Of a stretch of 64,000 bases of DNA, positions 21,707 to 51,165 are shown piece by piece. The first letter of the stretch is position 1. The number at the start of each line of letters is the position of its first letter. The DNA is taken from positions 2,212 through 66,211 of the forward strand of contig CALFAM010000153.1 in assembly GCA_937948815.1 (NCBI GenBank). Reading direction: 5' to 3'. The position numbers were made by a program, and so were the translations under genes. The notes under the pieces are model-generated. The model worked only from the letters and a program-made list of their open reading frames with translations, had not been told where the DNA came from and did not search any database. Source of the DNA: an uncultured bacterium (GTDB lineage: Bacteria; Acidobacteriota; Thermoanaerobaculia; Multivoradales; J023).

Positions 21707-22135
21707 TCAAGGGCGATGGTCGGCAGTCGGTATCGTGTCCAGCCGCTCGCGAAGCCGGGCTTCTCCGCCCCCGGCCAAGCCGTTGATCCGGAATACCTCC
21801 TTGCCATCACGAAAGAGTGCGACCAGGGGGAGCGATCCTACCCGGAAGGCTTCGCGCATCGCTCGGTCCGGGAAGATGAAACGGTCGACGTCGATCTTGA
21901 CCACGCGGAGGCGGTCGGCATAGTCGCGAGCAACTTGTTGCATGGCCGGCAACTGCCGGCGGCAAGACATTCACCAGTCAGCGTAAAAATCGACAAGAAG
22001 AAATCCCTTCTGATTTGCCACGGCTTCCACCGCGACCTTCCGGTCGAGCTCGACGATGACGGTGTCTTCTGCCACGGGGGCCGAAGTAAAAAGGTTCAGA
22101 GAAGAAACGAGCAATACGGTAGCGATCAGATGCAC
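21707..22135 (-). CDS. Thioredoxin-fold selenoprotein (in-frame UGA = Sec at 21971-21973; active site W-U-M-S-C) with an N-terminal hydrophobic signal-like segment
   Basis: ORFs 21971-22195 and 21707-21970 share a frame and are separated only by TGA. The joined translation reads ...KGFLLVDFYADW-U-MSCRRQLPAMQQVARDYADRLRVVKIDVD...GSLPLVALFRDGKEVFRI. That is a complete Trx fold, including the cis-Pro region. GTG 22135 is preceded by GAGGAGG (22140-22146) and gives (M)HLIATVLLVSSLNLFTSAP. An alternative upstream start is ATG 22195. Confidence 0.8.
21938..21965 (-). promoter_or_regulatory. Candidate bacterial SECIS hairpin downstream of the thioredoxin UGA
   Basis: The minus-strand RNA reads UUGC-C-GCCGGC-AGUU-GCCGGC-CAU-GCAA. 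It has a 6-bp GC upper stem with a G/U-containing tetraloop and a 4-bp lower stem. The upper stem starts 10 nt after the UGA. Spacing and shape resemble the hairpin after the selD UGA in this window. Confidence 0.6.
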
Positions 22136-22507
22136 GGAACCTCCTCGTTGAAAGTTGTTATCGGTGTGCGTCAGAGAAGATGGGAGACGAAGCACGGAGG
22201 ATCTTCGAGCGAAGCATCACGCGCTGCGGCTGCGCTCGGAAATCCAGTAGGACCTTCTTTCCACGCGAAAGTTCTCGGAGGGCATCGAAAATCTTCTCGC
22301 GAGTGGCGTGGTTTTTCGATAGTGAGATGTGCTGTGGCGAACATGCGTTTATTGAAGGTTTTTCAATGGCCAAGCTGGGAAACCATCGATCAGGCTGATA
22401 GCATGGTAACAGTGTTCAATAGGGACGAGAGGGATCCGACTCGTCGATAAAACTTGCTGGTAACGATGCGGGGCCTCCTGGTCCTCGCGCACGGCGGAGG
22501 TGTGCCG

Positions 22508-25500
22508 ATGATTCGTTTCAGCATCATGTTTTTCTCCGCCAATGCGGAGACGCTTGGCGACGACAAATACCGCCTCGTCGTTGATGCTGCGACCTTCGCA
22601 GATCAGCACGCTTTCGAAGCTGTGTGGGTGCCCGAGCGGCACTTCGGCCTGTTGGGTGGTCTCTATCCCAACCCATCCGTGCTGCAGTCGGCATTGGCGG
22701 TCGCGACGGATCGGATTGCACTGCGTGCAGGGAGCGTCGTCTCGCCGCTGCACAACCCTATTCGAATCGCCGAAGAATGGTCCATGGTCGACAACCTCTC
22801 CGCGGGGCGTGTCGGACTCTCCTTTGCATCCGGCTGGAACCCTACTGATTTTGCACTGGCGCCAGAGCGCTACGAGCGGCGTCGCGATCTGCTGTACGAA
22901 GACCTCGAGACCGTGCAGCGTCTGTGGCGAGGGGAAGCCATCGAGGTCACCAAGGGCGGTGGCGCCTCGACCACGGTGGAGATCTATCCGAAGCCCGTTC
23001 AGGATGAGCTTCCCGTATGGATCACCGCAGCCCGCAGTCCGGAGACCTTCGAGCGTGCCGGCACCTTGGGCGTCAATGTTCTGACGCATCTCCTGGATCA
23101 AGACGTCAGTGGGTTGGCCGAGAAGATCACCATCTATCGCGACGCGCTGGCCGCCGCCGGGCACGATTCGCGTGCAGGCCGCGTCACAACAATGCTGCAT
23201 ACCTTCGTCCAGCCTGATGAGGCCGTTGCACGCGACGTCGCTCGGGATCCTTACTGTGCCTTCTTGAAGTCCAACATTCCACTGCTCAAGGGGCTTGCCG
23301 AGAGCCGTGATCAGACGGTCGATCTCGATGCGTTGTCTCCGGTCGAGCAGGACGACTTCGTACGGTTTCTTTATCAACGGTTCGCCAGTGCTCGAGCACT
23401 GATCGGGTCGCCTGAATCATGTTTGCCGCTGGTCGCGTCACTGCAAGAGATCGGTGTCGATGAGATCGCTTGTCTGCTCGACTTTGGACCCTCCAATGAC
23501 GACGTCATGTGCGGACTCCCGTCACTCCACCAACTTGCGACGGCGAGCGCTCTGGAGCTCAGAGCGGATGCTCCCTCCGAGGCGATGCCCGCTCCCGTGG
23601 TCGGTGTGACGAAGACCGTTCGCGACCGGTGCGATCGCGTTCTGGCGCCAGACGCATTCGCGCGGCAACTGGCTGCCGTAGGTCTCGAGTCGGCTCGCCA
23701 GATCCTGCCGAACATTGCGCTGAATGGGGCCGAGGCGCTGGCCGAGATCGAAGGCAGCCCGGTCCTGCATCGCCGGAAGCCGCTCGATCCCGCACTCCTC
23801 GAGACGTGTGCCGAGGCCGCACAACTCGTCGCTCCCGAGATCTTCGAGGATCGAGCTCCGCGCCTGGTTTCGCATATTGGGGCGCTCCGAGATGTGGTGC
23901 CGGATGCTGCCATTCGCTATCTACACGTTGTTCGCGTCGAGCCGGGGCAATTTCAGGTCGAGATCCGCTTTCTGGACGCGGCTGAGCGGGTGGTTGGGCG
24001 GCTGGGGTCGGTCCGCCTGCGCAAGCTCGGCAGGCCGCCGGTCGCTCTCATGGCGGCGGCGGGCGACGCCTCGAGCTTGTACTACGAGATGGCCTGGGAG
24101 GTCTGCCCCGCGGCTGCAGATCGAACATCGGTAGCTGCGACTGGCCGCGGCTGGTGCATCGTCGGTGACCGGAGTCCACTGGGTGCCAGCCTGGCGGAAG
24201 CGCTGCGGCGGACCGGTCGGAGTTGTCGCCTGATCGAGCCGGGATCGCTCCCGGAATTCTGGGCCCGACAGGATGCGGACCGCCTGGTGGGTCAGCTGTC
24301 GGAGGACGCCGAGAGCCCGAGCCATCTCGTCTACCTGCCGACCCTGGACGCACCAGTGGACCAGGCGACGAGTATCTCTTCGCTCCGACAGGCTCAGGCC
24401 ATCGGGCCGACAGCCGCGCTGCTGCTGATGCAAGCGCTGGTCGAGCGAGGAGGGGTCAAGGCGCCGAAGCTCTACCTGGTGACCCGCGCCGCGCATGCCG
24501 TCGGCGAGCAGAAGGTACCGCTTTCATCGATTCAGTCGACACTCTGGGGGCTCGGAAAGACCTGTGCCATGGAGCATCCGGAGATCTGGGGCGGTCTGGT
24601 CGACCTGGATCCGAAGGGCGACGAGCAGGCCAACACGGAGGCGCTGCTCGAAGCGCTCTTGGCGGCCGATGGCGAAGATCAGGTCGCCTTCCGCGGCGGG
24701 CAACGCTTCGTCGCACGGCTGGCGCGACGCCGTACGCCGCATCCTGCCGCACCGCCTGTCCGCCACGACGGCACCTATCTGGTCACCGGCGGCCTGTGGG
24801 GAGTCGGCCTGGAGGTATCCCGCTGGTTGCTCTCGAATGGCGCTGGTGCGCTGGTGCTCGTCGGCCGGAGTGCGCTGCCGCCCGAAGATACGTGGGACTC
24901 GCTCGAGCCAGGCACACGTGCTGCCGAGCTGGCCGGCGCGCTGCGAGGGCTGCGCAGCAACGGCGGCGACGTGCGCTACGAAGTGCTGGACGTCACCGAT
25001 GAGCCCGCGCTCGTCGCCCTGCTGGGGCAGTTGAGCGAGACAGAGAAGCCGCTGCGCGGCGTCGTGCACGCGGCCTCTGTGTGGCGGGACCGCAACGGCG
25101 AAACCCTGATACGCCCCATCCTGCAGAGCGACGCGGCCGCACTGGAGCTGGTGTTTCAGCCCAAAGTGCTCGGTACCTGGCTTCTCCACCAGCATACGAA
25201 GGAGCTTGCCCTCGATTTCTTCTGCCTGTTCTCCTCCGCGGCTTCGCTGACCGGTTCCGCGGGCCAAGGGAGCTACGCGGCGGCGAGTGGATTCTTGGAC
25301 ACCCTGGCGCACGAGCGTGCGCGCCTCGGGCTTCCCGCCCTGGCCATCAACCTCGGCCCGGTCTCTGACGCCGGCTTTGGTGCGACGAGTGAGGGGCTCA
25401 AGGTTCATACCTACTGGGAGTCCAACGGTCTGGCACGGGTGTCGCCGCCGCAGGTTCTGGAGGCGCTCGGTGCCTTGACCCAGGACGGTTCGCCGCAGGC

Positions 25501-26053
25501 GGGCTTCATGCGTTTCGACTGGCAGGCCATCGCACGCTTCTTCCCGGCGCTCTACGAAGCGCCTTGGGCGAGTCGGCTCGTCGAAGCCGTCGCGGTCACG
25601 GAGCAGCCCTCGGCGTTCCTCGGTGAGCTTCGCGCGGCGCCCGCTTCCGAGCAGATCAGCCTGGTGATTCGACAGCTTCAGCATCGTGTCGCGGAAGTGA
25701 TGGGGATGGAGGGACCCAAGCTGCCACCAACTCACAAGAAGCTGTTCGACATGGGGGTCGACTCCCTGATGTCGATTGAGCTGAAGGGGCGCCTGCAGGC
25801 GGATTTCGAGGCGGAGATTCCGATCACGGCGGTCTTCAACTATCCGACCATCGATGCGCTCGGGGGCTACGTGGCGAGCCAGGTTCTCGGGCTCGATCAG
25901 CCCGACGAGAGCGAAGGTGGCGTGGTGAGCGCTGCGGAGGACGTCGGGGCAGTGGACGCGGCGCTCAAACACGTCCATGAGATATCGGACGAGGAAGTCG
26001 ACCGATTGCTAGCAGCCAAGACCGCCGAGCTCACCCATCAATCGCAGCATTGA
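22508..26053 (+). CDS. Type I PKS, second part of module 2: luciferase-like monooxygenase (LLM) domain, C-terminal half of a degenerate DH-like fold, KR, ACP
   Basis: ATG 22508 has GGAGG 7 nt upstream; the ORF-track start 22454 is rejected.
- LLM: FSIMFFSA...AVWVPERHF...NPIRIAEEWSMVDNLSAGRVGLSFASGWNPTDF (natural-product LLM type, ~22.5-23.5 kb)
- ~23.6-24.04 kb: a DH second-hotdog-like segment with LDPALLETCAEAAQ in place of HPxLLDxxxQ
- KR: YLVTGGLWGVG, YAAASGFLD
- ACP: MGVDSLMSIEL. Confidence 0.9.
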   Translation: MIRFSIMFFSANAETLGDDKYRLVVDAATFADQHAFEAVWVPERHFGLLGGLYPNPSVLQSALAVATDRIALRAGSVVSPLHNPIRIAEEWSMVDNLSAGRVGLSFASGWNPTDFALAPERYERRRDLLYEDLETVQRLWRGEAIEVTKGGGASTTVEIYPKPVQDELPVWITAARSPETFERAGTLGVNVLTHLLDQDVSGLAEKITIYRDALAAAGHDSRAGRVTTMLHTFVQPDEAVARDVARDPYCAFLKSNIPLLKGLAESRDQTVDLDALSPVEQDDFVRFLYQRFASARALIGSPESCLPLVASLQEIGVDEIACLLDFGPSNDDVMCGLPSLHQLATASALELRADAPSEAMPAPVVGVTKTVRDRCDRVLAPDAFARQLAAVGLESARQILPNIALNGAEALAEIEGSPVLHRRKPLDPALLETCAEAAQLVAPEIFEDRAPRLVSHIGALRDVVPDAAIRYLHVVRVEPGQFQVEIRFLDAAERVVGRLGSVRLRKLGRPPVALMAAAGDASSLYYEMAWEVCPAAADRTSVAATGRGWCIVGDRSPLGASLAEALRRTGRSCRLIEPGSLPEFWARQDADRLVGQLSEDAESPSHLVYLPTLDAPVDQATSISSLRQAQAIGPTAALLLMQALVERGGVKAPKLYLVTRAAHAVGEQKVPLSSIQSTLWGLGKTCAMEHPEIWGGLVDLDPKGDEQANTEALLEALLAADGEDQVAFRGGQRFVARLARRRTPHPAAPPVRHDGTYLVTGGLWGVGLEVSRWLLSNGAGALVLVGRSALPPEDTWDSLEPGTRAAELAGALRGLRSNGGDVRYEVLDVTDEPALVALLGQLSETEKPLRGVVHAASVWRDRNGETLIRPILQSDAAALELVFQPKVLGTWLLHQHTKELALDFFCLFSSAASLTGSAGQGSYAAASGFLDTLAHERARLGLPALAINLGPVSDAGFGATSEGLKVHTYWESNGLARVSPPQVLEALGALTQDGSPQAGFMRFDWQAIARFFPALYEAPWASRLVEAVAVTEQPSAFLGELRAAPASEQISLVIRQLQHRVAEVMGMEGPKLPPTHKKLFDMGVDSLMSIELKGRLQADFEAEIPITAVFNYPTIDALGGYVASQVLGLDQPDESEGGVVSAAEDVGAVDAALKHVHEISDEEVDRLLAAKTAELTHQSQH

Positions 26054-26054
26054 C

Positions 26055-29000
26055 ATGAGCAGTACCGAAGCATTCGTACGCGAGCTCACGCAGCTTTCTC
26101 CCAAGCGGTTGCAGCTGCTTTGCCTCGAGATGCGAGAACAGCTCGACGCTGCGGATCGCGATCGGCGGGAACCGATCGCGATCGTCGGCCTCGGTTGCCG
26201 CTTCCCCGGCGGCGTTCGCGACTCCGAGTCGTTCTGGAAGCTGCTTGCCAATGGCGTGGATGCGACCGGCGAGGTTCCAGCCGACCGCTGGGACATGAAC
26301 GGTTTCTACGACACCGATCCGCTCGCGGTCGGCAAGATGTGTACGCGTCGTGGAGGCTTTCTGACCGATATCGATCAGTTTGATCCGACGTTCTTCGACA
26401 TCACGCCGCGAGAAGCCGAGAACATCGACCCGCAGCAACGTTTGCTTCTCGAGGTCACCTGGGAAGCGCTGGAGCACGCGGGTCAGGTGCCTTCGCAGTG
26501 GGGCAGTCGGCGCGTCGGTGTCTATGTCGGGATCACCCTCGAAGACTATGCGCGGGTGCAGATGCGCACCAACGACCCGACCTCGATCAATGCCTACACC
26601 GGCACGGGTATGACCACCAGCGTGGCGGCTGGTCGCCTCAGCTACGTCTTGGGATTCCAGGGACCGAGCTTTGCGCTGAACACCGCGTGCTCGTCGTCGT
26701 TGGTCACGGTTCATCTTGCCGCGCAGAGCCTGCGTCGCGGCGAATGCGAGATGGCGGTTGCCGGCGGCGTCAACCTCATGCTCTCTCCGGATTCGAGCAT
26801 TTTCCTGAGCGCGGCGCAGGCGCTCTCGCCGGACGGGCTGTGCAAAACCTTCGACGCCCGTGCCGATGGCTACTCGCGGGCCGAAGGCTGCGGCATGGTC
26901 GTGCTGAAGCGCCTTCGTGACGCGATCGCGGATGGTGATCGCGTGCTCGCGACGATTCGCGGTTCGGCGATCAACCACGACGGCCACAGCAGTGGGCTGA
27001 CCGTGCCGTACGGCCCTGCGCAGGTAGCGGTGATTCGGACTGCCCTCGAAGACGGCGGCGTGCGGCCGGACGAGATCAGCTACATCGAAGCGCACGGAAC
27101 GGGCACACCCCTCGGTGATCCGATCGAGGTGCAGTCCCTGGCCGAAGTCATGGGCGCGGGTCGCACGGCCGAGAATCCCCTCGTGCTCGGCTCGGTCAAG
27201 ACGAACTTCGGCCACGCTGAATCTGCGGCGGGAATTGCCGGCTTGATCAAAGTCGTTCTGGCCATGCAGCATCGCGAGCTGCCGCCTCACCTTCATTTCG
27301 AGCAACCCAATCCGCATCTTGGTCTGGATGAGGCGTCGTTTCGCATCCAGACGTCGCTCGCGCCCTGGCAGCCGGCGGGCGATCGCCGCTTGGCTGGCGT
27401 GAGCTCGTTTGGACTGAGTGGAACCAACGCTCATGTCGTGCTCGAAGAAGCGCCCGCGCGCCCTCGCCCGACGCGTGAGCGCCGCCGGCCCCAGCATCTC
27501 TTTCTCCTCTCCGCGGCCCGTCCCGAAATCTTGCCACGCATGGCGGAGCGTGCTGCCGACCACATCGAGCGTCACGACGAGATCGACGTCGGCGATGCCT
27601 GCTTCACGGCCAGCACCGGGCGCACCCACTTCGATCACCGTTTCGCTGCGGCAGTGAGCTCGCGCGATGCGTTGGTCCAGAGCCTTCGCCGTGTCGCGGC
27701 TGGAGAACCTGCGCCGCGGACCTGGCATCGTGCGGTCGACGCGCTCGAGGCTCCGCGAATCGCCTTCCTGTTCACCGGCCAGGGCGCCCAGCGCAAGGAC
27801 ATGGGGCGCCAGCTCTTCGACACGCAGCCGACGTTTCGGCGCACACTCGAGCGTTGCGACGAGATCCTGTCGCCGCTGTTGGGCCAGTCGATGCTGTCGG
27901 TGCTGTATGCGGCCGATGGGGGCGCGGATGAAGGTGCCAGCCGAATCCACGAGACAGCGTTGGCACAGCCGGCGCTCTTTGCCGTCGAATATGCCCTTGC
28001 CGAGATGCTCGGGTCTTGGGGGGTGAGGCCAGCTGCGCTCCTGGGCCACAGTGTTGGCGAGTATGTCGCCGCCTGTGTGGCAGGTGTTTTTTCGCTCGAA
28101 GATGCCTTGCGCATCCTTGCCGAACGTGGGCGCTTGATGCAGGCCCTCGAGGGCGACGGCGCGATGGTCAATGTCTTCGTACCGGAGGCGACGGCGCGGC
28201 AAGCGATCGAAGGCCACCGAGAGCATGTGTCGATTGCGGCGATCAACGGTCCGGCGAGCACGGTGCTCTCCGGTGACCGCGCGGTACTCCAGGCAGTCGT
28301 CGGGGCGTTTGGTGATCGCCATCGCTGGCTCGAGGTCTCCCACGCCTTTCATTCACCTCAGGTCGAGCCGATGCTCGACGCGTTCGAGCGGCTGCTTGCC
28401 ACCATCGACCTGTCGGCTCCGGCCATTCCCCTGATCTCCAACCTCACCGGCCGCGTGGTCGAGCCCGAAGAGATCGTTCAGCCGTCGTATTGGCGTCAGC
28501 ACGTCCGTTCGCCCGTGCGCTTCATGGACGGCATCGCGAGCTTGCATGTCCACCGCTGCACGACCTTTCTCGAGCTGGGCCCGAGCCCGGTCTTGCTCGG
28601 GTTGGGTCGACGGTGCCCGGGCGCGGATGCGGCGGCCTGGCTACCGACCTTGCGCCCGGCCAAGACCGACTGGGATCAGATACTCGAAAGCGTCGCTCAG
28701 CTGCACACTGCCGGTGTCGAGATCGACTGGCAAGCGTTCGATCGTGACGAACCGAGTCGCCGGGTTTCGTTGCCGTCCTACCCATGGAAGCGGCGTCGGT
28801 TTTGGTTGCGCGGCGCCGTCCCCATTTCTCGCCTCGAAATCGGGATGGAGCCGGCCCTGGATCACGCACGCGCCCATCCGGACGAACCGTCAACCGAAAC
28901 GGCGTCGGGCGAGCATTCCGAGCCGGCACCGAGCTTGTACTACGAGATCGTCTGGGAAAAGTCTGAGCTCCCAGCGCACGGTCAAGGGCTGCTGGAGGGA

Positions 29001-42752: not shown

Positions 42753-42759
42753 GTCGCCC

Positions 42760-44277
42760 GTGGCGAAGCTCGGCGTCGAACGAACTGCCGTTGCTGCCAC
42801 AATGGTCTTTGGCGTGAGCCCGATCCTCGGGGTCGCGGCCGCGGTTTCGACAGATGGGCCGCTCTCCGGTGTCGCGCTGGCCCTGCGTGCGGCAGCCTGT
42901 GGGCTGGCGGCGGTGGTTGTCGTACGGCTGATCGCTCGACGGTTGCCCGAGGGCCTCGATGGGCTGGCGCGGCAAGCGCCCAAGAAGTGCGCACTCTGGC
43001 TCTTGCTGGCATTGGTTGCGACTCTGCAGATCGCCCGCGTCAGTGTGTTCATGGTGGATCCCGCCGCGAGGTGGGCGTCGGCCTTCCCGCCTAGCGAGGA
43101 GGCGGCTCGGCACACCTGCCTGAGTGCGTACGTTTATGCGGCCGAGCTCCATCGGCGTGGAGACGACGCTGCGGTCTACCAACGCGCGACCTATCGTGAC
43201 CCGACCGCCCAGACCGACATCGGCAACCTTGCACCGTATCTGGGCGATGCCTTCCTGTATCCAGCGCCGTTCCTGGTGGTCGCGCGTGGTCTCCTGGCAG
43301 TCAGTCCAGATTTTCTTGTCATTCGTAGCGTCTGGTTCGTCTTGAATATCTTGGTATTCATGGCAGGTGCTCTGGCGCTGGCAGCGTGGATCGGTGGGCG
43401 TACGGGCCTCCGCGTGGGTTTCTTGCTTCCGGCCGCGCTCATGGCCATTCCGACGCTTCTCAATTTCCAGTTTGGGCAAGTCCATCTGGTGACCCTCGTC
43501 GGCGCCACGCTGGCAATGGCCTTGTTCGCGACGCGGTACGACAAACTGGGCGGTCTCTTGCTGGGCGCGGCGATTCTCGTCAAAGTGTTTCCCGCGATTT
43601 TGTTGCTCTATCTGGCGTTCCAGCGCCGCTGGCGACCGGTGATCGCCACCATCGCCATGCTTGTCGTGTTGACCGCCACGAGCATGGCAATTCTGGGTAC
43701 AGAGCTGTTCACCCATTACGTGTATCGCGCCGTCGACATTGGCATGGGTGCCGGTATTCCTTCGACGTCGGTGACGGCCTTGGCCAATGACATCGGAATC
43801 TTCCGGGTCGCCGAGAAGCTCGCATTCCTGGGTGTCGTGCAGCAGGGCAACGGGTTGGGCTCGGCGCTTCTGTGGGCCTACACGGCAGTCCTCGGCGTGA
43901 TGGCCTGGTGCGCGGCAAAGCCGCGTGGGCGGCAGGCCGCAAGCCGACACGAACGCGCCCTGATCTGGCTCGGCCTCTTGGCGCTGGCTTCGCTTCGCGC
44001 GCCTGTAGCGCCTTCGGCCTATATCGCCACCAGCGGAATCTGGATTCTGAGCTTGCTCGCGGCCCGAGTCGGGCCGCGTCGGCTCAGTTTGATGGTGGCG
44101 GCGGGCGCTGCTTGGCTGCTGCTGCAAGGGTTGCCGGGCGCGCCATCCCCCAAGCTTCTGATCATGCTCTCGTTCTTGCCACAGCTCGTCTTCGTAGGGG
44201 TCGCGATGGTTGCGATCTTCATCCTCAGCCAAGCGCGATCAGAAACGGCTTCCTTGGGCTTGAATCAATCGGTTTGA
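42760..44277 (+). CDS. Polytopic membrane protein, DUF2029 / GT87-like (GT-C fold) putative glycosyltransferase
   Basis: About 12 hydrophobic segments. The first-loop region reads ...VYQRATYRD...LGDAFLYPAPFLVVARGL, resembling the DUF2029 F-x-Y-P-P pattern. Start is GTG 42760 or ATG 42802. The 42424 start is rejected because it overlaps LysR. Confidence 0.55.
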   Translation: MAKLGVERTAVAATMVFGVSPILGVAAAVSTDGPLSGVALALRAAACGLAAVVVVRLIARRLPEGLDGLARQAPKKCALWLLLALVATLQIARVSVFMVDPAARWASAFPPSEEAARHTCLSAYVYAAELHRRGDDAAVYQRATYRDPTAQTDIGNLAPYLGDAFLYPAPFLVVARGLLAVSPDFLVIRSVWFVLNILVFMAGALALAAWIGGRTGLRVGFLLPAALMAIPTLLNFQFGQVHLVTLVGATLAMALFATRYDKLGGLLLGAAILVKVFPAILLLYLAFQRRWRPVIATIAMLVVLTATSMAILGTELFTHYVYRAVDIGMGAGIPSTSVTALANDIGIFRVAEKLAFLGVVQQGNGLGSALLWAYTAVLGVMAWCAAKPRGRQAASRHERALIWLGLLALASLRAPVAPSAYIATSGIWILSLLAARVGPRRLSLMVAAGAAWLLLQGLPGAPSPKLLIMLSFLPQLVFVGVAMVAIFILSQARSETASLGLNQSV

Positions 44278-45683
44278 TCGGCCGAGGCTTGAAGATCGCG
44301 CAGACGTTGGGCGATCATGGCGACTTCATCGTCATGAATGGTTCGGGCGTCGAGTGTCAAGGCGTCGTCGACGCGACGCATGACGATGGCGGGGTCGCCG
44401 AGGCGCATTTTGCTCGCCAGCGATTCGATTGACCCTTGGTGCGGTGTCAGTTTCACGCCCCAGCTATCCAGCTCGCGTGTCGGCAGCGCGCCGCTTCCTG
44501 CCTGAGAACGACACGGAACGAGTGCAGAATCGACATGCTCGATTGGCGCGAGCTGCTCCGCCAGGCGAGCTGCGCGCTTCTTGATGGTCGCGGCGTCAGC
44601 GAGCAGATTTCGCAAGGTCGGAATCTCCGCAAGTGCGCGCGATGTTCCTTGCCGGTAGAGGTCGAGTGTGGCTTCCAGGGCCGTGTAGATGAATCGGCTC
44701 GGCCGCATGGCGCGGAACATCTGGTGGTCGCGACAGCGTCCGACGGCTTCGCGACTACCTGCGATGATTCCAGCTTGCGGCCCGCCGAGAAGTTTGTCGC
44801 CGCTGAAGCAAACCAGATCGACGCCTGCTGTGAGGGCTGCTTGTACGGAAGGCTCGTCATGGATTCCATGCTCGGCAAGCTCGATCAAGCTACCCGAGCC
44901 CATGTCATAAACCACGGGCACGCCCAGCGGTCGTGCGATCGCAACCATTTCCTCGAGTGAAACTTCCTTGGTAAAGCCTTGCACGCGATAGTTCGATGTG
45001 TGCACCTTGAGAATCATGCCGGTCTCTTCATTCAGACGGTTGGCATAATCTCGAACATGGGTGCGGTTGGTGGTGCCAACTTCGACCAGGATTGCGCCGC
45101 TCTCGCGCATGATGTCCGGGACTCGGTATGAGCCACCGATCTCGACCAGCTCACCCCTTGACACCAGAACGGGCTTTTCGCGGGTGAGGGCGGCCAAAAT
45201 GATGAGCGTGGCAGCAGCGTTGTTGTTGACGATCGTTGCCGCTTCGCATCCGGTCAGCTCACGAATAAGTGCTGCACAACCTTCGTCGCGACCACCGCGT
45301 TGCCCCGTTTCGAGATCGAGCTCCAGTTTCTGGGAGCGGATCGATAGCTCGGCAACGCGTTTGGCGGCGACGTCAGCAAGCGGGGAACGTCCCAAGCCCG
45401 TGTGCATCACGACGCCGGTCGCATTGATCACATGCCGGTAGTACGGACGTCGGCGCTCGGCTAATCCTTGCTCGAGGGCACTGGCAACGCGATCAACCGC
45501 CAACTCCTCTTCGCAAAGATCGCCGCGGATTCCCCGGGCGCGCAGCTGGTCGAGAATCACACGGGTTTCAGCGACGATCTCGCGGTGTGTGAATGACTCG
45601 GAGAGCTTCTCGATCCTGGGGTGTGCGAGGAGCAGATCAGTCTTCGGAAGTTTTCGAAGCAGCGCGTGAGCGGGGGTATTCAT
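44265..45683 (-). CDS. selA: L-seryl-tRNA(Sec) selenium transferase
   Basis: 472 aa. SelA-typical N-terminus LLRKLPKTDLLL...; the PLP-domain segments NNNAAATLIILAAL and FSGDKLLGGPQAGII contain the PLP lysine context. The gene is divergent from tRNA-Sec. Confidence 0.92.
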   Translation of the reverse strand: MNTPAHALLRKLPKTDLLLAHPRIEKLSESFTHREIVAETRVILDQLRARGIRGDLCEEELAVDRVASALEQGLAERRRPYYRHVINATGVVMHTGLGRSPLADVAAKRVAELSIRSQKLELDLETGQRGGRDEGCAALIRELTGCEAATIVNNNAAATLIILAALTREKPVLVSRGELVEIGGSYRVPDIMRESGAILVEVGTTNRTHVRDYANRLNEETGMILKVHTSNYRVQGFTKEVSLEEMVAIARPLGVPVVYDMGSGSLIELAEHGIHDEPSVQAALTAGVDLVCFSGDKLLGGPQAGIIAGSREAVGRCRDHQMFRAMRPSRFIYTALEATLDLYRQGTSRALAEIPTLRNLLADAATIKKRAARLAEQLAPIEHVDSALVPCRSQAGSGALPTRELDSWGVKLTPHQGSIESLASKMRLGDPAIVMRRVDDALTLDARTIHDDEVAMIAQRLRDLQASADQTD

Positions 45684-45873: not shown

Positions 45874-45972
45874 GGAAGCGTCAGAAAGTCGGTGCTTTCC
45901 GCGGTCTTCAAAACCGTTGTCTCGGGCCTCTGCGGTCCGGGGGGTGGGTTCGATTCCCATACGCTTCCGCCA
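45874..45972 (+). tRNA. selC: tRNA-Sec (anticodon UCA)
   Basis: Hand-folded, 99 nt:
- 8-bp acceptor stem GGAAGCGU/ACGCUUCC
- 6-bp D stem GAAAGU/GCUUUC with a 4-nt loop
- anticodon loop CU-UCA-AA
- long variable arm CGGGCC-UCUGC-GGUCCG
- T arm GUGGG-UUCGAUU-CCCAU
- discriminator G and encoded CCA
It is close in layout to E. coli selC. Confidence 0.93.
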
Positions 45973-46196
45973 CGCTCAACTCAAGACAGTTATGGCCGTG
46001 CAGCAGCCCAGTGCCTGCGGGTATTCGAGGCGACCTGTGACTCTCGAGTACTGAAGCTCGAGCTTCACGTCCTTCAACCGACGGCGGCAATGGTGGGGCC
46101 CTTCGGGTTGACGTCGGTTTCAGGGTATGATGGCCCTGTTTCAGGGGGCCATCTGATCGTCTCGGTCAACGCTCGAATCAGCTTGGAGCAGGAATC

Positions 46197-47261
46197 ATGT
46201 CTCTTCTGGGTCGTTTCAAGAAGAATACGCTCACCAGTCTGTCCAAAACCTGCGGTTGAGCGGCCAAACTGAGCCCGGTCGGGCTCGGCGAGCTGCTACA
46301 GAAACTGCCCAAGAACGAGGATGCCAATCTCCTCGTTGGCTTCAGCACCAGCGATGATGCAGCCGTCTATCGGGTGTCCGATACGCTTGCCATGGTCATG
46401 ACCGCGGACATCATCACGCCACCGGTGGATGACCCGGTCATCTTTGGCCAGATTGCCGCCGCCAACTCGCTGAGCGATGTCTATGCGATGGGCGGCCGGC
46501 CGGTGGCATGTCTCAATCTGGTGGGTTTTCCAGCCGACAAGCTCGGGCCGGAAGTCCTGGAAGGCATGATCGCTGGCGCGCTTAGCAAGATCACCGAGGC
46601 CGGCGCAGTCCTGGCGGGCGGACATACGATCGAAGATGACGAACCCAAATTTGGGCTGTCGGTCAACGGTCTCGTTCATCCCGATCAGTACTGGCCGAAC
46701 GCTGGGGCGCGTCCCGGTGACGGGTTGATCCTGACGAAGCCCATTGGCAGCGGCGTGCTCTTCAACGCGAACCTGAAGGGTGGTGTGTCGGATGAAGCGT
46801 TGGCATTTTGCATCGAGACGCTGACGACGCTCAACAAGGTTGCGGCGGAAACCCTGGCGGACTTTGATGTCCATGCCGCGACGGACGTCACCGGTTTTGG
46901 CCTGGCCGGTCACGGTCTCGAGATGGCCAAAGGCTCCGATGTGACGATCCGCCTCGCGGTCGCCGATCTTCCGATCATGCCAGAGGCTCTCGAAGCCTAC
47001 GAAAGTGGCGTCACCACTGGTGTGAATGCAAGCGTGTGGCAGCTCGTCGGCGAGCACCTTACCTTCGAGCGTGACTTCGCCCATGCGCAAAAGGAAATTC
47101 TCGTGGATCCCCAGACGAGCGGCGGACTGCTCGTGTCGATCCCGGGAGATCAGATCGAGGCGGCGCTCGCCGCGCTTCACGAGGCTGGCGTGGCGGCTGC
47201 CGCGAAAGTCGGTGTGGTCGAAGCCAAGACGGCGGACCAGACGTTCTTGGTCGCCTATTGA
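46197..47261 (+). CDS. selD: Selenide, water dikinase (selenophosphate synthetase), Sec-containing form with in-frame UGA at 46257-46259
   Basis: ATG 46197 has GGAG 8 nt upstream. Translation reads MSLLGRFKKNTLTSLSKTCG-U-AAKLSPVGLGELLQKLP, continuing into the tracked ORF (46374-47261) with SDVYAMGGRP and AGGHTIEDDEPKFGLSV. The UGA sits at the position of the catalytic Cys/Sec in the glycine-rich N-terminal loop. Confidence 0.9.
46271..46286 (+). promoter_or_regulatory. Candidate bacterial SECIS hairpin of selD
   Basis: GAGCCC-GGUC-GGGCUC starts 11 nt after the UGA. The GGUC apical loop matches the loop sequence of the E. coli fdhF SECIS as I recall it. Flanking GCC/GGC can extend the stem. 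Confidence 0.6.
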
Positions 47262-47478
47262 GGTCCGAAGATCGTGTTGTGCCGCAAGCACGTATGTGCC
47301 GAGCACAACCGTTGCGACACCAACGGCACGCCCCAGGATCCCGTGTCTTGCGTGGGGATGCGATTGCAATCACTGTGATCGCCGGTCGAGAAACATGCCT
47401 GCCCGCGACAACGCCTGTCCGAACCGGTGGCGCTCGCCACGGGCACGCTTTCCCGTAGGTTGTAAGGAGACAGGAACA

Positions 47479-48393
47479 ATGAAGCTCGGAAGGATGTTGG
47501 TACTGCTGGTCGTTGTGGCGTTCATGGTTGCGTGTGGCGGAGCGGCCGATTCCGGAGCTCCAGCGGAGAGCGACGGTGGTCAAGAGGCGCCGCAGAGCGT
47601 GCTTCGCTTCTCGGCGATTCCAGATCAGAACAGCACGGAGCTGAACGAGAAATTCCAGCCCTTGGCAAGCTACCTCAGCGACAAGCTCGGCGTGCCGGTG
47701 GAGTATGTTTCCTCGCGGGACTACCAGGCTTCGGTCGAGGCGTTCAAGAACGAGGACATTCATCTGGCCTGGTTCGGTGGCTTGACGGGGGTCCAGGCGC
47801 GCAATGCTGTGGCAGGCGCACGGGCGATTGCCCAGGGTGCTGCCGATCCACAGTATTACTCGTACTTCATTGCCTCCAAAGACTCGGGTCTCGAGCGTTC
47901 AGATGAGTTTCCGGAGGCGATCAGCAAGATGACCTTCACCTTCGGATCGGAGAGCTCGACGAGCGGGCGCCTGATGCCGGAGTACTTCATCAAGCAAGCG
48001 ACCGGCAAGACGCCGGGCGAGTTCTTCGATGAGCCTTTTGGCTTCTCCGGTAGCCACGACAAGACGGTGGAGTTGGTCGAGACCGGGCAGTACCAGGCTG
48101 GCGTGGTCAACTACAAGGTCTACAACCGCCGGGTCGAGGAGGGCAAGACCGACCCCGATGCGGCGCGGATCATCTGGCAGACGCCCTACTACGCGGACTA
48201 CAACTGGACCGCTCATCCGAAGCTCGACGAGGTCTTCGGCGCCGGCTTTGTCGATCGCTTGCAGGAGGCCCTGATCGGCATTGAAGATCCGGCGTTGCTT
48301 GCGGCACTGCCCCGTGAGCGCATGATTCCGGCGACCAATGAGGAATTCGAGGGGATTCGCCTGGTGGCGGTCGAACTCGATATGCTGCGCTAA
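47479..48393 (+). CDS. ABC transporter substrate-binding lipoprotein, PhnD (phosphonate/phosphite-binding) family
   Basis: AAGGAGA RBS. Signal peptide plus lipobox MKLGRMLVLLVVVAFMVAC-GG. LRFSAIPDQNSTELNEKFQPLASYLSDKLGVPVEYV and WFGGLTGVQA are PhnD-like. Confidence 0.85.
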   Translation: MKLGRMLVLLVVVAFMVACGGAADSGAPAESDGGQEAPQSVLRFSAIPDQNSTELNEKFQPLASYLSDKLGVPVEYVSSRDYQASVEAFKNEDIHLAWFGGLTGVQARNAVAGARAIAQGAADPQYYSYFIASKDSGLERSDEFPEAISKMTFTFGSESSTSGRLMPEYFIKQATGKTPGEFFDEPFGFSGSHDKTVELVETGQYQAGVVNYKVYNRRVEEGKTDPDAARIIWQTPYYADYNWTAHPKLDEVFGAGFVDRLQEALIGIEDPALLAALPRERMIPATNEEFEGIRLVAVELDMLR

Positions 48394-48536
48394 CGCCTGC
48401 GCCCGAAACCTCTCGGCGAGCGGACGAGTCTCTCGGCGGTTGGCATGCACCGGCCCGCGAGCGGGTAGCCTCAAGTGCGTGCTTGTCGCCGGGAGGGTCA
48501 AGTTTGTTAGACGAGACATCGATCGGAGGGGAGATC

Positions 48537-49322
48537 GTGTCCCGAGAGTGCCAGACCGGAGCCCGATTCGAGCTGCGCGATCTCGAGGTCGACTACGGCT
48601 CGACCCGCGCGCTCGCTGGTGTGTCCCTCCGAGTCGAAGCGGGTGAGCAGATCGCGTTGGTCGGCCCGAGCGGCGCAGGTAAGACGACGCTACTCAGCGT
48701 CCTGAACGCGACGGTCCGCCCGACCGGCGGCACGATCGAGGTGAATGGCGCCGATCTCACGGCCTATTCCGTTCGCGAGCTGCGCCGCGCTCGTTCGGAG
48801 ATCGCCTTCGTCCACCAGGGCCTCAACCTCATCCCCAACATCCGGGTATTGCACAATGTGCTGAGCGGCCGCATGGGTCGCCAGTCCTTTCTCGGCTCGC
48901 TCTTCTCCATGCTGTTTCCTGGCCGCAAGCGGGTGGAGGCAGTGCACGAGATCCTCGACCGCGTTGGCATTCCCGACAAGCTCTACGGTTACACCCATCG
49001 GCTCTCGGGCGGCCAGCAGCAGCGGGTGGCAATTGCCCGCGCGCTCTACCAGAACTGCCGGGCGATTCTGGCCGACGAGCCGGTGGCGAGTGTCGACCCG
49101 GCGCGCGCGCGCGACTTGGTCGTCCTGCTGACATCAATCGCGCGGGAGAATGGGCTGACGCTGGTGATGAGCCTGCACAACCTCGAGCTGGCGCAGCGCT
49201 ACTTTCCTCGCCTGGTCGGGCTGCGCCAAGGTGAGCTGGCCTTCGATGCACCGACGTCCGACGTTTCCAGCGAGCAGCTTCAAGCGCTCTACGATCTCTC
49301 TGCCTCGCAGGTCGTCGCGTGA
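48537..49322 (+). CDS. ABC transporter ATP-binding protein, PhnC-like
   Basis: GTG 48537 follows GGAGGGGAG. Motifs: Walker A GPSGAGKTT, signature LSGGQQQRVAIARAL, Walker B ILADEPVASVD, and the PhnC-type segment VLHNVLSGRMG. Confidence 0.9.
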   Translation: MSRECQTGARFELRDLEVDYGSTRALAGVSLRVEAGEQIALVGPSGAGKTTLLSVLNATVRPTGGTIEVNGADLTAYSVRELRRARSEIAFVHQGLNLIPNIRVLHNVLSGRMGRQSFLGSLFSMLFPGRKRVEAVHEILDRVGIPDKLYGYTHRLSGGQQQRVAIARALYQNCRAILADEPVASVDPARARDLVVLLTSIARENGLTLVMSLHNLELAQRYFPRLVGLRQGELAFDAPTSDVSSEQLQALYDLSASQVVA

Positions 49323-50203
49323 GCCAGGCAGTCGCGGCTCTGTCGCGACCGCGTGGCGGGCGAGGCGTAGCGCTGCTGAGTATCTTGGTCGCCGGCGTGG
49401 TGGCCTTCTTTTCCCTGGGGTTGGATCTTCGCGACCTGATTCCCGACCGGGGCGGCCTGACGGTCCTGGGCAAGTTCTTCTCGCGCGCCCTCAGTCCGGC
49501 GCTGACCTACGAGGCGAGCTTCGTCCCCGAGGGTACACAGCCGCTCCTGCTCAAAGCGATCGGCTCCGTTTTCAAGACCGTTCTCTTCGCTGCGGCTGGC
49601 CTGGGCCTGGCATTGCTACTCGGTGTCGTGCTCGGCTTCTTCGCCTCGAATGCTTGGTGGGTTGGGGACGTTTCGGGCAATCGAAACCCCATCTTCCGCT
49701 GGGTCCGCCGCAGCATGCTGCCGGTGGTCTTCGTCTCCGCGCGGGTGTTGATCGCTGTGATGCGGTCGATTCACGAACTGTTGTGGGCTACGTTGTTCCT
49801 GGCCGCATTCGGTCTCAGCGACACCACTGCCGTGCTCGCGTTGGCGATTCCGTACGGCGGCATGCTCGCCAAGGTCTTCTCCGAGATCGTCGACGAGGCG
49901 CCTCGTGACACGGTGTTGGCGCTCAAGGGGCTGGGCGCGTCGCCGCTTCAGGTCTTTTTCTTCGGCTTGGTCACGCGTGCCGCGCCGGATCTCTTGGCCT
50001 ATCTTTTCTATCGCTTCGAATGCGCGGTGCGCGCGTCCGCGATTCTCGGCTTCTTCGGCTACCCGACCCTCGGCTACTACCTGGCGGCCTCGTTCGAGAA
50101 CCTGCACTATGGCGAGGTGTGGACGTATCTCTACGTGCTCATCGCACTGGTGTCGCTTCTCGACTGGTGGTCGAGTGCTTTTCGGCGGAGCTTGGCCACG
50201 TGA
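49319..50203 (+). CDS. ABC transporter permease, PhnE-like (1 of 2)
   Basis: Multi-TM protein with a BPD-transport type EAA-like loop (ALKGLGASPLQVFFFGLV). Its start overlaps the ATPase stop. Confidence 0.85.
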   Translation: MSQAVAALSRPRGGRGVALLSILVAGVVAFFSLGLDLRDLIPDRGGLTVLGKFFSRALSPALTYEASFVPEGTQPLLLKAIGSVFKTVLFAAAGLGLALLLGVVLGFFASNAWWVGDVSGNRNPIFRWVRRSMLPVVFVSARVLIAVMRSIHELLWATLFLAAFGLSDTTAVLALAIPYGGMLAKVFSEIVDEAPRDTVLALKGLGASPLQVFFFGLVTRAAPDLLAYLFYRFECAVRASAILGFFGYPTLGYYLAASFENLHYGEVWTYLYVLIALVSLLDWWSSAFRRSLAT

Positions 50204-51165
50204 GCACGGATCCGAAGGACACCGGTGGCTCGACCACGACGGCGCCCGGTTCGACCAGGTGGCAGCAGATCACGACTCTGCGCCGTCAGCGGCCACGCCG
50301 ACGATTTGCCACCCGCAGCCTCGCCTTGCTCTTAGCCCTGCTCGTCGGCGCCTGGTTCGTTGGCAATTTCCATCTCGACGATCTCATCGCGACCAAGCGC
50401 ATCGAGAATCTTCGCCGTTTCGCCAACGAAGTGACGCCGTATCCGCTCCAGGGGCAGCCGTTCGATCTCGGCACCGCGCTCACCTGGGCGCACGAGATCA
50501 TGATGGAGAAGGGGTGGTCTGGTGCGGGCAAGACGCTCGCGATCTCGGTGCTGGCGATCGTCCTGGCGGGTTTGTTCAGCAGCACGCTGTCCTTCTTCGG
50601 AACCCGTACGTTGGTCTCCCCCGAGCCGTTCATCACCAGCCTCCGGCCGCCGTCGAAGATACGTGCCGCGGGGTGGCGCGCCGTCGTGGGCTTCACCCGT
50701 GCGACGTTCGTCGTCGCACGATCGATCCCCGCCTATCTCTGGGCCTTCTTGCTGGTGTCGATGCTCGGCCCGACTGCTTGGCCCGCGGTCTTGGCCCTGG
50801 CGCTCCACAACACGGGCATCCTCGGCAAGCTCACGGCGGAGGTCAACGAGAACCTCGACGCCAAGCCTCTCGCGGCGTTGCGTGGCATGGGCGCTTCCCG
50901 TTCACAGATCGCGCTCTTCGGAATGATCCCGCTCACCCTGCCTCGGTTCTTGCTGTTCTTCTTCTACCGGTGGGAAACCTGTGTGCGCCAAGCCACGGTG
51001 CTCGGGATGCTCGGGATCGTCTCGCTGGGCTTTTGGATTCAGGACGCGCGCGCCCGCAACTACTACGACGAGATGGTTCTTCTGATTTTGGCCAGTGTGG
51101 TGCTCGTGCTGGTCGGTGACGTGGTCTCCATCGCTATGCGTGAGCTGATCCGTCGCCGCTCATGA
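50200..51165 (+). CDS. ABC transporter permease, PhnE-like (2 of 2)
   Basis: GTG 50200 overlaps the preceding stop (GTGA). The loop ALRGMGASRSQIALFGMIP is paralogous to the first permease. Confidence 0.85.
   Translation: MSTDPKDTGGSTTTAPGSTRWQQITTLRRQRPRRRFATRSLALLLALLVGAWFVGNFHLDDLIATKRIENLRRFANEVTPYPLQGQPFDLGTALTWAHEIMMEKGWSGAGKTLAISVLAIVLAGLFSSTLSFFGTRTLVSPEPFITSLRPPSKIRAAGWRAVVGFTRATFVVARSIPAYLWAFLLVSMLGPTAWPAVLALALHNTGILGKLTAEVNENLDAKPLAALRGMGASRSQIALFGMIPLTLPRFLLFFFYRWETCVRQATVLGMLGIVSLGFWIQDARARNYYDEMVLLILASVVLVLVGDVVSIAMRELIRRRS

Follow-up and report, generated by a model that had tools for sequence, protein, structure and literature searches.

A predicted selenocysteine-containing thioredoxin encoded within a polyketide synthase locus, and its linkage to the selenocysteine-decoding genes in an accessory block of an acidobacterial genome

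The window analysed here is a stretch of 64,000 nucleotides from a contig of an uncultured member of the Acidobacteriota; the host is a soil-type bacterium. A large part of it is taken up by a modular polyketide synthase (PKS), encoded on the forward strand by five megasynthase genes (positions 8630-38930) whose domains were assigned with Pfam. PKS1 (8630-17500) comprises a FAAL-ACP loading part followed by a KS-AT-DH-ER-KR-ACP module. PKS2 (17497-21693) encodes KS-AT-DH and opens a split module, the second half of which, a luciferase-like monooxygenase (LLM) of the MupA/Atu3671 type followed by KR and ACP, is encoded by PKS3 (22454-26053), a protein with thousands of homologues. PKS4 (26055-30935) exhibits the architecture KS-AT-KR-ACP, and PKS5 (30939-38930) the architecture KS-AT-(LPG_synthase_C-like)-DH-KR-ACP, followed by a stretch with no domain assignment and, at the C-terminus, by a weak, sub-threshold match to α/β-hydrolases. 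Two tailoring genes follow, one for an OlsE-like fatty-acid hydroxylase (FAH, PF04116; 38935-39993, forward strand) and one, on the reverse strand, for an LCM-type SAM methyltransferase (40022-40852, with a likely ATG at 40852 in an ORF that stays open to 40990). Such a FAAL-primed, highly reducing modular PKS should produce a hydroxylated, methylated long-chain lipid.

Between the two halves of the split module, on the reverse strand, lies a gene that we call trxU (21707-22135). It converges on PKS2, whose stop codon is at 21693, and is transcribed away from PKS3, which starts at 22454. It begins with a GTG codon 5 nt downstream of GAGGAGG and encodes a predicted exported, 142-aa thioredoxin-fold protein that carries a signal peptide and in which an in-frame UGA (21971-21973, reverse strand) occupies codon 55 within the motif W-U-M-S-C. 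The protein matches PF00085 with an E-value of 3e-12, the alignment spanning the UGA, and thioredoxins of the PDB with an E-value of 3e-16 across 107 residues; its score against TIGR01068 (66.7 bits) lies under the equivalog cut-off. A SECIS-like hairpin, GCCGGC-AGUU-GCCGGC (21941-21964, reverse strand), begins 10 nt past the UGA (13 nt if counted from the first base of the UGA) and is supported by folding and by its conservation in three lineages, in which 20 nt are invariant, with synonymous sites elsewhere saturated. The UGA and the protein sequence flanking it on both sides are conserved in this genome and in two metagenome lineages (L026 and L027/L028), the 30 residues preceding the UGA being ~85% conserved and W-U-x-S-C being present in all three, and the dN/dS ratio among them is 0.04-0.10 with dS >1. 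On this comparative evidence trxU is a real, selected selenoprotein gene, with selenocysteine (Sec) predicted at U55. The divergent region between trxU and PKS3 (22136-22453) is AT-rich and contains two blocks, TTATCAGCC and TATCGAAAAA, that are conserved in the three-lineage alignment; the GC content of trxU together with this region (21694-22453) is 0.56. In the public protein collection TrxU is present only as fragments of 78-87 aa; gene callers split trxU at the UGA, so that tools for mining biosynthetic gene clusters (BGCs) miss it.

Beyond the methyltransferase gene, two further genes precede selA. The first encodes LysR_Se, a LysR regulator associated with selenium metabolism (41838-42752, forward strand; NF040786, 265 bits against a cut-off of 250), and is located 1.5 kb from selA. 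The second, tightly coupled to it, encodes a GT87 membrane glycosyltransferase (PF09594; 42760-44277, forward strand, with an uncertain start at 42721-42802), homologues of which were found in only 4 of 40 relatives, at no more than 37% identity, and in neither congener. The coupling of LysR_Se to this non-selenium accessory gene hints at more than passive linkage. The Sec genes proper comprise selA for selenocysteine synthase (44265-45683, reverse strand; PF03841, E 1.7e-131), selC for tRNA-Sec with the anticodon UCA (45874-45972, forward strand; ARAGORN, and Rfam RF01852 with 67 bits) and selD for selenophosphate synthetase (46197-47261, forward strand), itself with a Sec (UGA) codon at position 21 and a GGUC-loop hairpin. 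They are followed by an ABC importer operon (47479-51165, forward strand) encoding a lipoprotein substrate-binding protein (SBP), a PhnC-like ATPase and two PhnE-like permeases; its final stop codon overlaps the ATG of sfsA. To our knowledge, no assay of selenium-oxyanion transport exists for this importer family, TIGR04553. The SBP (~47479-48393) scores 311.5 bits against the TIGR04553 cut-off of 250, and NCBIfam labels the family 'putative selenate ABC transporter substrate-binding protein'; this is a 'hypothetical equivalog', named by gene neighbourhood, and transport of selenium oxyanions is accordingly putative. Thus, the four linked elements that the first-pass annotation had listed (the Trx gene, the PKS tailoring genes, selA/selC/selD and a transporter) are all present, with boundaries that differ by a few bases at most.

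The assembly contains one selA, one selD and one tRNA-Sec, although at 82% completeness a second sel set is possible. The selB gene is unlinked and stands alone on another contig (C367; 358.6 bits against a cut-off of 242), where its synteny is kept with the congener G001, so that selA, selB, selC and selD make up a full Sec-decoding set in this genome. TrxU had also been regarded as the only selenoprotein candidate other than SelD; this agrees with the window, in which a non-exhaustive look revealed no other, but not with the genome, which exhibits an in-frame UGA at known Sec positions in FdhA (contig C281) and in a DUF3179 protein (contig C180). The sel module is general-purpose and not dedicated to the PKS, as SelD itself, FdhA and the DUF3179 selenoprotein must draw on it as well.

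The PKS with the nested trxU, the LysR_Se-GT87 pair, selA, tRNA-Sec, selD and the TIGR04553 importer together form an accessory block of 42.8 kb (8392-51161), bordered by an M48-peptidase gene that ends at 8391 and by sfsA, which starts at 51162. In both same-genus genomes the M48 gene and sfsA are contiguous, with a gap of 15 nt in G002 and ~200 nt in G001, and since the same adjacency is found in three other genera (G003, G007 and G014), the empty site is the ancestral state. Positions 8392-51161 thus represent one derived insertion, which may have been assembled in one event or in two. No integrase or transposase was found among the Pfam-annotated genes of the block, no direct repeats flank it (both junctions have in common chance 9-mers only), and no tRNA attachment site was found at its border, the tRNA-Sec gene being internal. 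As a statement about linkage, the earlier suggestion of a co-inherited island is upheld by these data.

Orthologous PKS loci were recovered from two metagenome lineages (L026 and L027=L028), with PKS2 orthologues 79% and 69% identical, respectively, and in every one of them trxU occupies the same nested slot with its UGA intact. This indicates that trxU travels with the PKS, a point on which the earlier hypothesis is not refuted, with an ascertainment bias, because the loci were found via the Trx gene; besides, they may represent one closely related clade, in which case shared ancestry could explain the conserved order. The lineages that have both the PKS and TrxU come from ERR12725713 and from JGI 3300049258/SRR32234004. 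The Trx gene is absent from the more distant split-module PKSs, one in the same genome (C366) and two others (L147 and L148), and the 10-kb surroundings of the L148 locus lack selA, selD and tRNA-Sec alike.

Among the PKS-bearing lineages other than the window, L140 is the only one readable past the end of the PKS, the third lineage being readable to the PKS only. It displays the order PKS5 end-FAH-LCM-LysR_Se-GT87-selA, as in the window, with ~74% nucleotide identity at the junction and with protein identities of 66-86% on the PKS side (66% for the PKS5 C-terminus, 86% for FAH and 79% for LCM) and 60-86% on the sel side (86% for LysR_Se, whose L140 orthologue scores 262 bits, above the NF040786 cut-off). 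The junction between the PKS and the sel genes is conserved in this second lineage. On the other hand, the sel genes lie elsewhere in both same-genus genomes and in the 15 relatives whose selD loci were inspected, and this PKS is absent from these genomes; on whether the sel genes travel with the PKS the outcome is mixed. The sel module is family-wide among the relatives, where its PKS-free form includes selA, selC, LysR and selD, the last accompanied by the ABC operon in some cases only; none of the 15 selD loci has a PKS within ~10 kb, and a TIGR04553-type operon is found beside selD in six. The most complete of these sel loci (G012) contains selC-selA-LysR-SBP-ABC and selD inside 10 kb, and its LysR is 47% identical to LysR_Se of the window, while the SelA of the window is at most 60% identical to that of any GTDB relative. 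TIGR04553 is a rare family (4 of 400 genomes of the phylum), and in an unrelated MAG its ABC operon adjoins a related FAAL/LLM PKS, which hints at more than passive linkage.

The base composition of the block is mosaic. The 8.3-kb segment from FAH to selD has a GC content of 0.598, which corresponds to the 0.5th percentile of 4-kb windows of the genome, and FAH, LCM, LysR_Se, selA, selD and trxU are all atypically low in the same way; the block overall (0.644, 28th percentile) includes megasynthase genes of typical or high GC. The low-GC mosaic recurs in L140 and L026, and in the relatives the GC content of selD and selA is about equal to or above that of the surroundings. Vertical descent within the genus is not rejected in the trees of SelD and SelA (AU p 0.14 and 0.22), and they do not establish that the sel genes are foreign. 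Within the genus the sel genes are positionally labile, with three configurations and three SelA/SelD types in three genomes. Of shared promoter or regulatory motifs, none survived checking. One candidate, TCGARAAAC, was discarded: it was a post hoc choice and does not occur upstream of the SBP genes in 11 other loci.

We consider it moderately probable that the region is an accessory block whose parts are inherited together, with a dependence that runs one way: TrxU needs Sec decoding. A block of 42.8 kb would have been inserted between the ancestrally adjacent M48-peptidase gene and sfsA and then passed on whole within a small clade, which comprises this genome and, at the least, the ERR12725713 lineage. 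In PKSs of this type TrxU is probably a fixed component under selection. Its synthesis requires that its UGA be read as Sec, and hence selA, selC and selD as well as the unlinked selB; since the sel module is general-purpose, the coupling amounts to physical linkage with a dependence in one direction and not to a selenium pathway dedicated to the BGC. Being exported, TrxU cannot act on the cytoplasmic PKS assembly line; it would rather act as a periplasmic thiol/selenol-disulfide oxidoreductase, with an envelope protein or a lipid-connected envelope step as a possible target. Nothing indicates that selenium enters the polyketide.

An unlikely alternative is that the sel/ABC module and the PKS cluster are unrelated insertions into the same variable gap, and that a Trx selenoprotein near sel genes is a coincidence picked from many scanned windows. 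The gap is indeed variable: in G006 it holds an unrelated ECF-sigma/kinase insertion, and such independent occupation means that two separate hotspot insertions could explain the adjacency of the PKS and the sel genes, in line with the positional lability of the latter, with the lack of a mobile-element signature joining both halves and with the GC content of the megasynthase genes, unlike that of the sel half. However, the junction retained in L140, with similar divergence on both sides at ~74% nucleotide identity, implies that any coincidence predates the split of the two lineages, as it has been retained since. Besides, low GC is common to the sel genes, the PKS-side tailoring genes and trxU, and the coincidence would have had to hit the one BGC that requires Sec decoding.

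The linkage could, on the contrary, reflect a functional unit, i.e. a selenium-conditional lipid pathway, in which LysR_Se would sense selenium status and control one or more of GT87, trxU and the PKS operons, the exported Sec-thioredoxin would perform or protect a step in the periplasm that involves the lipid or the machinery tailoring it, and the need of the pathway would keep the sel genes and the importer adjacent. This would agree with a trxU that is conserved, strongly selected and nested in this PKS type only, with the translational coupling of LysR_Se to GT87, a gene outside the sel module of the family, which is kept in L140, with the low GC content common to FAH, LCM, LysR, selA, selD and trxU, with the rare TIGR04553 operon beside a related PKS in the unrelated MAG, and with how improbable it is, a priori, for the sole sel cluster to border the one BGC that carries a selenoprotein. 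Nevertheless, we regard it as unlikely, given that TrxU is exported and the PKS cytoplasmic, that selB is unlinked, that the sel module must serve FdhA, the DUF3179 protein and SelD too, that paralogous and related split-module PKSs work without a Trx gene, that no common promoter motif held up and that the L148 locus is devoid of nearby sel genes. The export of TrxU, the general-purpose sel module and the failed motif also bear on the other earlier suggestion, a possible selenol-based redox step tied to the product, so that the earlier interpretation is partly supported, on the side of linkage. A form of the functional unit in which the exported Sec-thioredoxin is needed to make, modify or preserve an envelope polyketide lipid, e.g. 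together with a periplasm-facing GT87, LysR_Se ties expression to selenium and the linkage is kept because the pathway fails without the sel genes and the importer, appears unlikely as well. Finally, it is hardly credible that SelD supplies selenophosphate for a selenium-bearing small molecule of the selenoneine (senABC) kind, as in the SelD-dependent selenometabolite clusters that Kayrouz et al. reportedly described in 2022: the sole support is the proximity of selD to a biosynthetic cluster, against which selD is flanked by selA and tRNA-Sec, a Sec-decoding context, all sizeable ORFs of the block have Pfam or NCBIfam assignments, none of the SenA or SenB type, and the SelD orthologues of 15 relatives reside in a like sel context without a BGC.

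Selenoproteins are rarely considered in natural-product biosynthesis, and a full-text literature search turned up no publication connecting a selenoprotein with a PKS cluster. In heterologous expression of such a cluster, TrxU would be missing unnoticed if the host could not decode Sec or lacked selenium. The linkage of the PKS to the only selA, selC and selD of the genome provides a natural test of whether Sec-decoding and Sec-dependent accessory genes travel together, and the order of the LysR_Se-GT87 pair and the TIGR04553 importer offers handles for two neighbourhood-based selenium annotations. Should the functional unit prove true, the cluster would be the first among polyketide clusters to require a selenoprotein; should the link be merely physical, it would still be a well-documented, lineage-specific insertion relocating an essential decoding trait.

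Zhang, Romero, Salinas and Gladyshev are said to have reported in 2006 that Sec-decoding genes are clustered and horizontally transferred with selenoprotein operons (fdhA, grd). The block resembles these cases in that the machinery is linked to a selenoprotein-encoding locus within a co-inherited accessory unit; it differs from them in that the partner is a secondary-metabolite PKS with a small accessory redox selenoprotein, and in that selB is missing from it, hence it is not self-sufficient. Selenium neighbourhoods known from comparative genomics combine selA/selB/selC/selD with LysR_Se/HrsM (Lin et al. 2015, as cited in PMC9312934). Compared with the neighbourhoods in that account, the sel module of the block has the same clustering of selA, selC, selD, LysR_Se and a PhnD-like ABC importer, but its selB is unlinked, its LysR_Se is coupled to GT87, and it abuts a 30-kb PKS cluster within a lineage-specific insertion.

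Selenoproteins with a UxxC motif in the PF00085 family are known, e.g. the thioredoxin of Treponema denticola, and so are exported Sec forms of Thioredoxin_2/DsbA/DsbG-like proteins (PMC9312934). TrxU shares with them the thioredoxin fold, Sec in place of the first Cys of CxxC, a downstream SECIS-type hairpin and the export. Unlike them, it belongs to a clade of three known members with the motif W-U-(M/G)-S-C and is embedded in a PKS. No close Cys-form orthologue of TrxU was found, the nearest thioredoxins being at most 51% identical, and its AGUU loop, in which the central GU is kept, contrasts with the GGUC(U) loops of the other three SECIS elements of the genome (selD, FdhA and DUF3179). 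As to the PKS, the bimodule responsible for α-hydroxylation in mupirocin biosynthesis contains an embedded luciferase-like monooxygenase of the MupA/Atu3671 type (PMC10952193). The PKS of the window likewise combines an LLM domain with KR-ACP in one module, and the family is widespread; in contrast to the mupirocin bimodule, it is a cis-AT, FAAL-primed line of the lipid type, its module is split over two genes, and its clade is unique in having a selenoprotein gene placed in that split.

The PKS genes and the sel genes of the window are, in terms of linkage, well supported as one co-inherited block. The window (65% GC) lies on contig C153 of a MAG with 371 contigs and 82% completeness, from a family whose genomes are large and rich in PKS genes. 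The inventory of the first-pass annotation proved correct, with all listed elements present, and a selenium-associated regulator (LysR_Se) and a GT87 glycosyltransferase are additions to it. Ordinary genes (Lon, Zn-ADH, a duplicated MacB/FtsX permease, SDR and an M48 peptidase) occupy positions 1-8391 and are followed by five co-oriented megasynthase genes at 8630-38930, with the domain orders FAAL-ACP-KS-AT-DH-ER-KR-ACP (PKS1), KS-AT-DH (PKS2), LLM-KR-ACP (PKS3; LLM, luciferase-like monooxygenase), KS-AT-KR-ACP (PKS4) and KS-AT-(LPG_synthase_C-like)-DH-KR-ACP (PKS5), the last with a C-terminal region that has only a weak hydrolase match. Next come an OlsE-like fatty-acid hydroxylase (FAH, 38935-39993), an LCM-type methyltransferase (40022-40852, minus strand), LysR_Se (41838-42752), which exceeds the cut-off of NF040786 ('selenium metabolism-associated'), the GT87 gene (start at 42721-42802, end at 44277) tightly coupled to it, selA (44265-45683, minus strand), tRNA-Sec (45874-45972), selD (46197-47261, with UGA as codon 21) and an ABC importer reaching to 51165, whose lipoprotein substrate-binding protein (SBP) passes TIGR04553 ('putative selenate ABC transporter'). 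Beyond them lie sfsA, with its ATG at 51162, then AbgT, TetR and an RND system.

The gene trxU lies between PKS2 and PKS3 on the other strand. It is a frame of 143 codons (21707-22135) with a GTG start 5 nt after GAGGAGG, and its product combines a thioredoxin fold with a hydrophobic, signal-like N-terminal stretch; a TGA occupies the exact place of the first Cys in WCxxC (W-U-M-S-C). In a collection of 5.8 billion proteins its close relatives are only two, fragments of 78-87 aa that start just past the TGA. The identical in-frame TGA and the upstream frame were found in metagenome contigs of two other lineages (L026 and L027=L028), with VELDRK...LLVDFYADW conserved. The segment TGCCGCCGGCAGTTGCCGGC on the 3' side of the TGA is identical across the three lineages and folds as GCCGGC-AGUU-GCCGGC; the hairpin comprises 20 nt without substitutions, while third positions elsewhere are altered in nearly all codons, with dS >1 and dN/dS of 0.04-0.10. 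These ratios indicate strong purifying selection and, together with the invariant hairpin, are the signature of a UGA that is translated by means of a SECIS element. Judged by this conservation, trxU is a real selenoprotein gene, and TrxU requires Sec decoding; a pseudogene or a chance stop codon is ruled out by dN/dS and because the sequence is conserved to either side of the UGA. The hairpins of selD and of two other selenoprotein genes of this genome, FdhA and DUF3179, have GGUC(U) loops, lie at a distance from the UGA matching that in trxU and are similar in stem position and length; compared with the selD hairpin (46257-46300), the SECIS-like loop of trxU (AGUU, 21945-21960) keeps only the central GU.

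The Trx gene was found to travel with the PKS: in all three lineages it is located between orthologous KS-AT-DH and LLM-KR-ACP genes, in the opposite orientation, at loci with 63-80% identity to the window. Because these orthologous loci had been located via the Trx gene itself, the reverse test was run from the side of LLM-KR-ACP, a very large family with 2748 matches at E ≤1e-80. In the nearest non-orthologous clusters (the more distant LLM split-module loci L147 and L148 and a paralogous PKS on contig C366 of the same genome; ~48-58% identity to the window in the PKS3/LLM part) the halves of the split module overlap and leave no intervening gene. The C366 paralogue (C366:382-19943), ordered ...ER-KR-ACP / KS-AT / LLM-KR-ACP / KS-AT-KR-ACP, is 52-58% identical to the window PKS3 in its LLM part and has no Trx gene at the split. 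Orthologues of TrxU or of the window PKS were found neither in 40 relatives, including two congeners, nor in 400 genomes sampled from the phylum; a scan of species-genome contigs with a Trx alignment, in which one of the patterns had Cys at the Sec position, returned only generic thioredoxins of at most 45% identity, and a scan of metagenome contigs with the PKS5 C-terminus returned no relative. Since the non-orthologous split modules and the sampled genomes are without it, the Trx gene is a specific and stable trait of one small PKS clade and not of LLM split modules generally.

That the PKS and Trx genes travel with the sel genes held only in part: their junction recurs in another lineage, but relatives carry the sel module without the PKS. 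The recurrence is seen in L140, a contig of the ERR12725713 lineage with ~74% nucleotide identity to the window, which is the sole contig extending beyond an orthologous PKS end and shares its sample with L026. Its order is PKS5 end-FAH-LCM-LysR_Se-GT87, then the C-terminus of selA, and its proteins match those of the window at 66-86% identity in the PKS part and 60-86% in the sel part; by contrast, no GTDB relative has a SelA more than 60% identical to that of the window, and the window LysR is 47% identical to the copy in the relative G012. The start of the GT87 gene is only a few bases from the stop of LysR_Se (with an 8-nt overlap in L140, 5074-5081), and this accessory gene, which is not itself a selenium gene, appears to share a transcript with the selenium-associated regulator. 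In the family, Sec-type selD is present in about 20 of 23 genomes; the same ABC operon adjoins selD in six of the relatives' 15 selD loci, G012 has selC-selA-LysR-SBP-ABC plus selD inside 10 kb, and PKS-like matches within ~10 kb of selD were found at none of these 15 loci. The 847-bp spacer between the LCM and LysR_Se genes (40991-41837) is without an assigned ORF, carries a palindrome, GAAGCTAC...GTAGCTTC, and does not align with its 592-nt counterpart in L140; it is possibly the seam joining the two halves of the block.

Comparison with the congeners reveals that positions 8392-51161 (42.8 kb) are a single derived insertion, which holds the whole sel module together with the PKS. The equivalents of window 6422-8352 and 51190-51904 are 15 nt apart in G002, and in G001 those flanks are ~200 nt apart, followed by collinear AbgT, TetR, HlyD and RND. 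M48 and sfsA also lie side by side in three further relatives (G003, G007 and G014), and the empty site is therefore ancestral. The sel genes of the congeners are dispersed elsewhere and are of other types: SelA of G002 belongs to a different clade, and SelD of G001 is a long fused protein of the Cys type (743-aa ORF) without UGA. Selenium genes are unusually labile in this family. SelA in the relatives (loci L180-L209) forms three deep clades that do not follow genus boundaries, with two of them in the genus of the window, and SelD in the family is either Sec-type or long fused Cys-type. The 'co-inherited island' of the first-pass annotation is accordingly well supported as linkage, by the L140 junction and the single insertion, but features of a mobile element are missing, as neither integrase, transposase nor flanking repeats were found in the block. 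The M48-sfsA gap of G006 (L210, G006:C35:27000-34000) contains an unrelated 3.9-kb insertion with an ECF sigma factor and a TPR Ser/Thr kinase, which suggests that the gap is an insertion hotspot and may be open to double insertion. At the right edge of the block the start of sfsA and the stop codon of the last permease gene overlap (ATGA, 51162-51165), so that this edge is apparently coupled in translation to a housekeeping gene.

The GC content of the segment from FAH to selD is 0.598, the 0.5th percentile of 4-kb windows, and that of the trxU region is 0.56, with typical or high values in the megasynthase genes; in the relatives, selD and selA have GC about equal to, or above, that of their surroundings. 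This hints at a common foreign origin of the small genes on either side of the junction. The window SelD does not pair with that of the congener in the SelD tree but branches outside all of the family's sequences (genus monophyly, AU p 0.14), and the SelA tree places the window SelA in an unresolved group (AU p 0.22). As these trees reject neither vertical descent nor monophyly of the genus, no horizontal transfer is claimed for the sel genes.

The sel module is not dedicated to the PKS cluster. The Sec trait is ancestral and general in the genus, because selB is unlinked, there is a single set of sel genes (one selA, one selD and one tRNA-Sec in the assembly), and FdhA and DUF3179 are encoded elsewhere; in this genome, three of the four Sec-trait genes happen to sit in the block. 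selB stands by itself on contig C367, flanked by genes for a histidine kinase and a CHAT/TPR protein, an arrangement kept in G001. On contig C281 (~3400-7200, minus strand), far from the sel genes, lies a canonical selenoprotein gene, that of the NAD-type formate dehydrogenase alpha subunit FdhA; its UGA is in ...HQCAAT-U-HAPTV, and its hairpin has a GGUCU loop. The minus strand of contig C180 encodes a membrane protein of the DUF3179 family (PF11376, E 7.5e-68), with an in-frame UGA in VVATY-U-LLCHTG and a hairpin CCACACC-GGUCU-GGUGUGG 11 nt downstream of it. It was the sole credible candidate left by a genome-wide scan for Sec/Cys paralogues after a filter on codon-position GC, a scan that is very noisy in a GC-rich genome and does not give a complete selenoproteome. 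FdhA and DUF3179 (UxxC/T, predicted) are both known selenoprotein families (table in PMC9312934).

A rival to linkage alone is a functional unit, in which TrxU and LysR_Se would belong to a selenium-conditional lipid pathway. A signal-like N-terminal segment is present on TrxU in all three lineages, and the protein would act as a periplasmic selenol/thiol oxidoreductase. ACP-bound intermediates are out of its reach, so any connection with the lipid would have to be in the envelope, where the membrane hydroxylase, a periplasm-facing GT87 or the product itself are candidate partners. The functional-unit reading is kept alive by the coupling of LysR_Se to GT87, which is accessory and does not occur in the sel modules of the family, and by a single case in an unrelated MAG (L148/L211; GCA_965187385.1, contig CBCYZT010000414.1), in which a TIGR04553 ABC operon (SBP, 330.9 bits) is directly beside a related FAAL/LLM PKS. 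No selA, selD or tRNA-Sec was found within 10 kb at that locus, and the transporter family occurs in only 4 of the 400 phylum genomes, never adjoining a PKS; the adjacency is either a second independent case or a coincidence. Between the PKS and sel promoters, shared 12-mers (one mismatch) are at chance level. TCGARAAAC occurs four times in the block (8571, 22311, 39213 and 47386; 0.7 expected), three of these in promoter-like spacers (upstream of PKS1, between trxU and PKS3, and upstream of the SBP gene). As a shared regulatory motif it was rejected, being a post hoc find, only partly conserved in L026/L027 and absent upstream of 11 other TIGR04553 genes. A selenometabolite (sen-type) cluster was rejected because of the gene content. 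Compared with co-inheritance as linked genes, selenium-dependent lipid chemistry at the locus seems the less likely reading.

A literature search turned up no PKS cluster that has a selenoprotein gene among its conserved members, and none of this kind linked to Sec genes. Earlier comparative studies have described sel genes linked to selenoenzyme operons. The individual components have all been described, namely Sec-thioredoxins, LysR_Se/HrsM, sel gene clusters and selenium transporters defined by their neighbourhood (PMC9312934; NCBIfam), and LLM domains in PKS modules are known as alpha-hydroxylases (PMC10952193).
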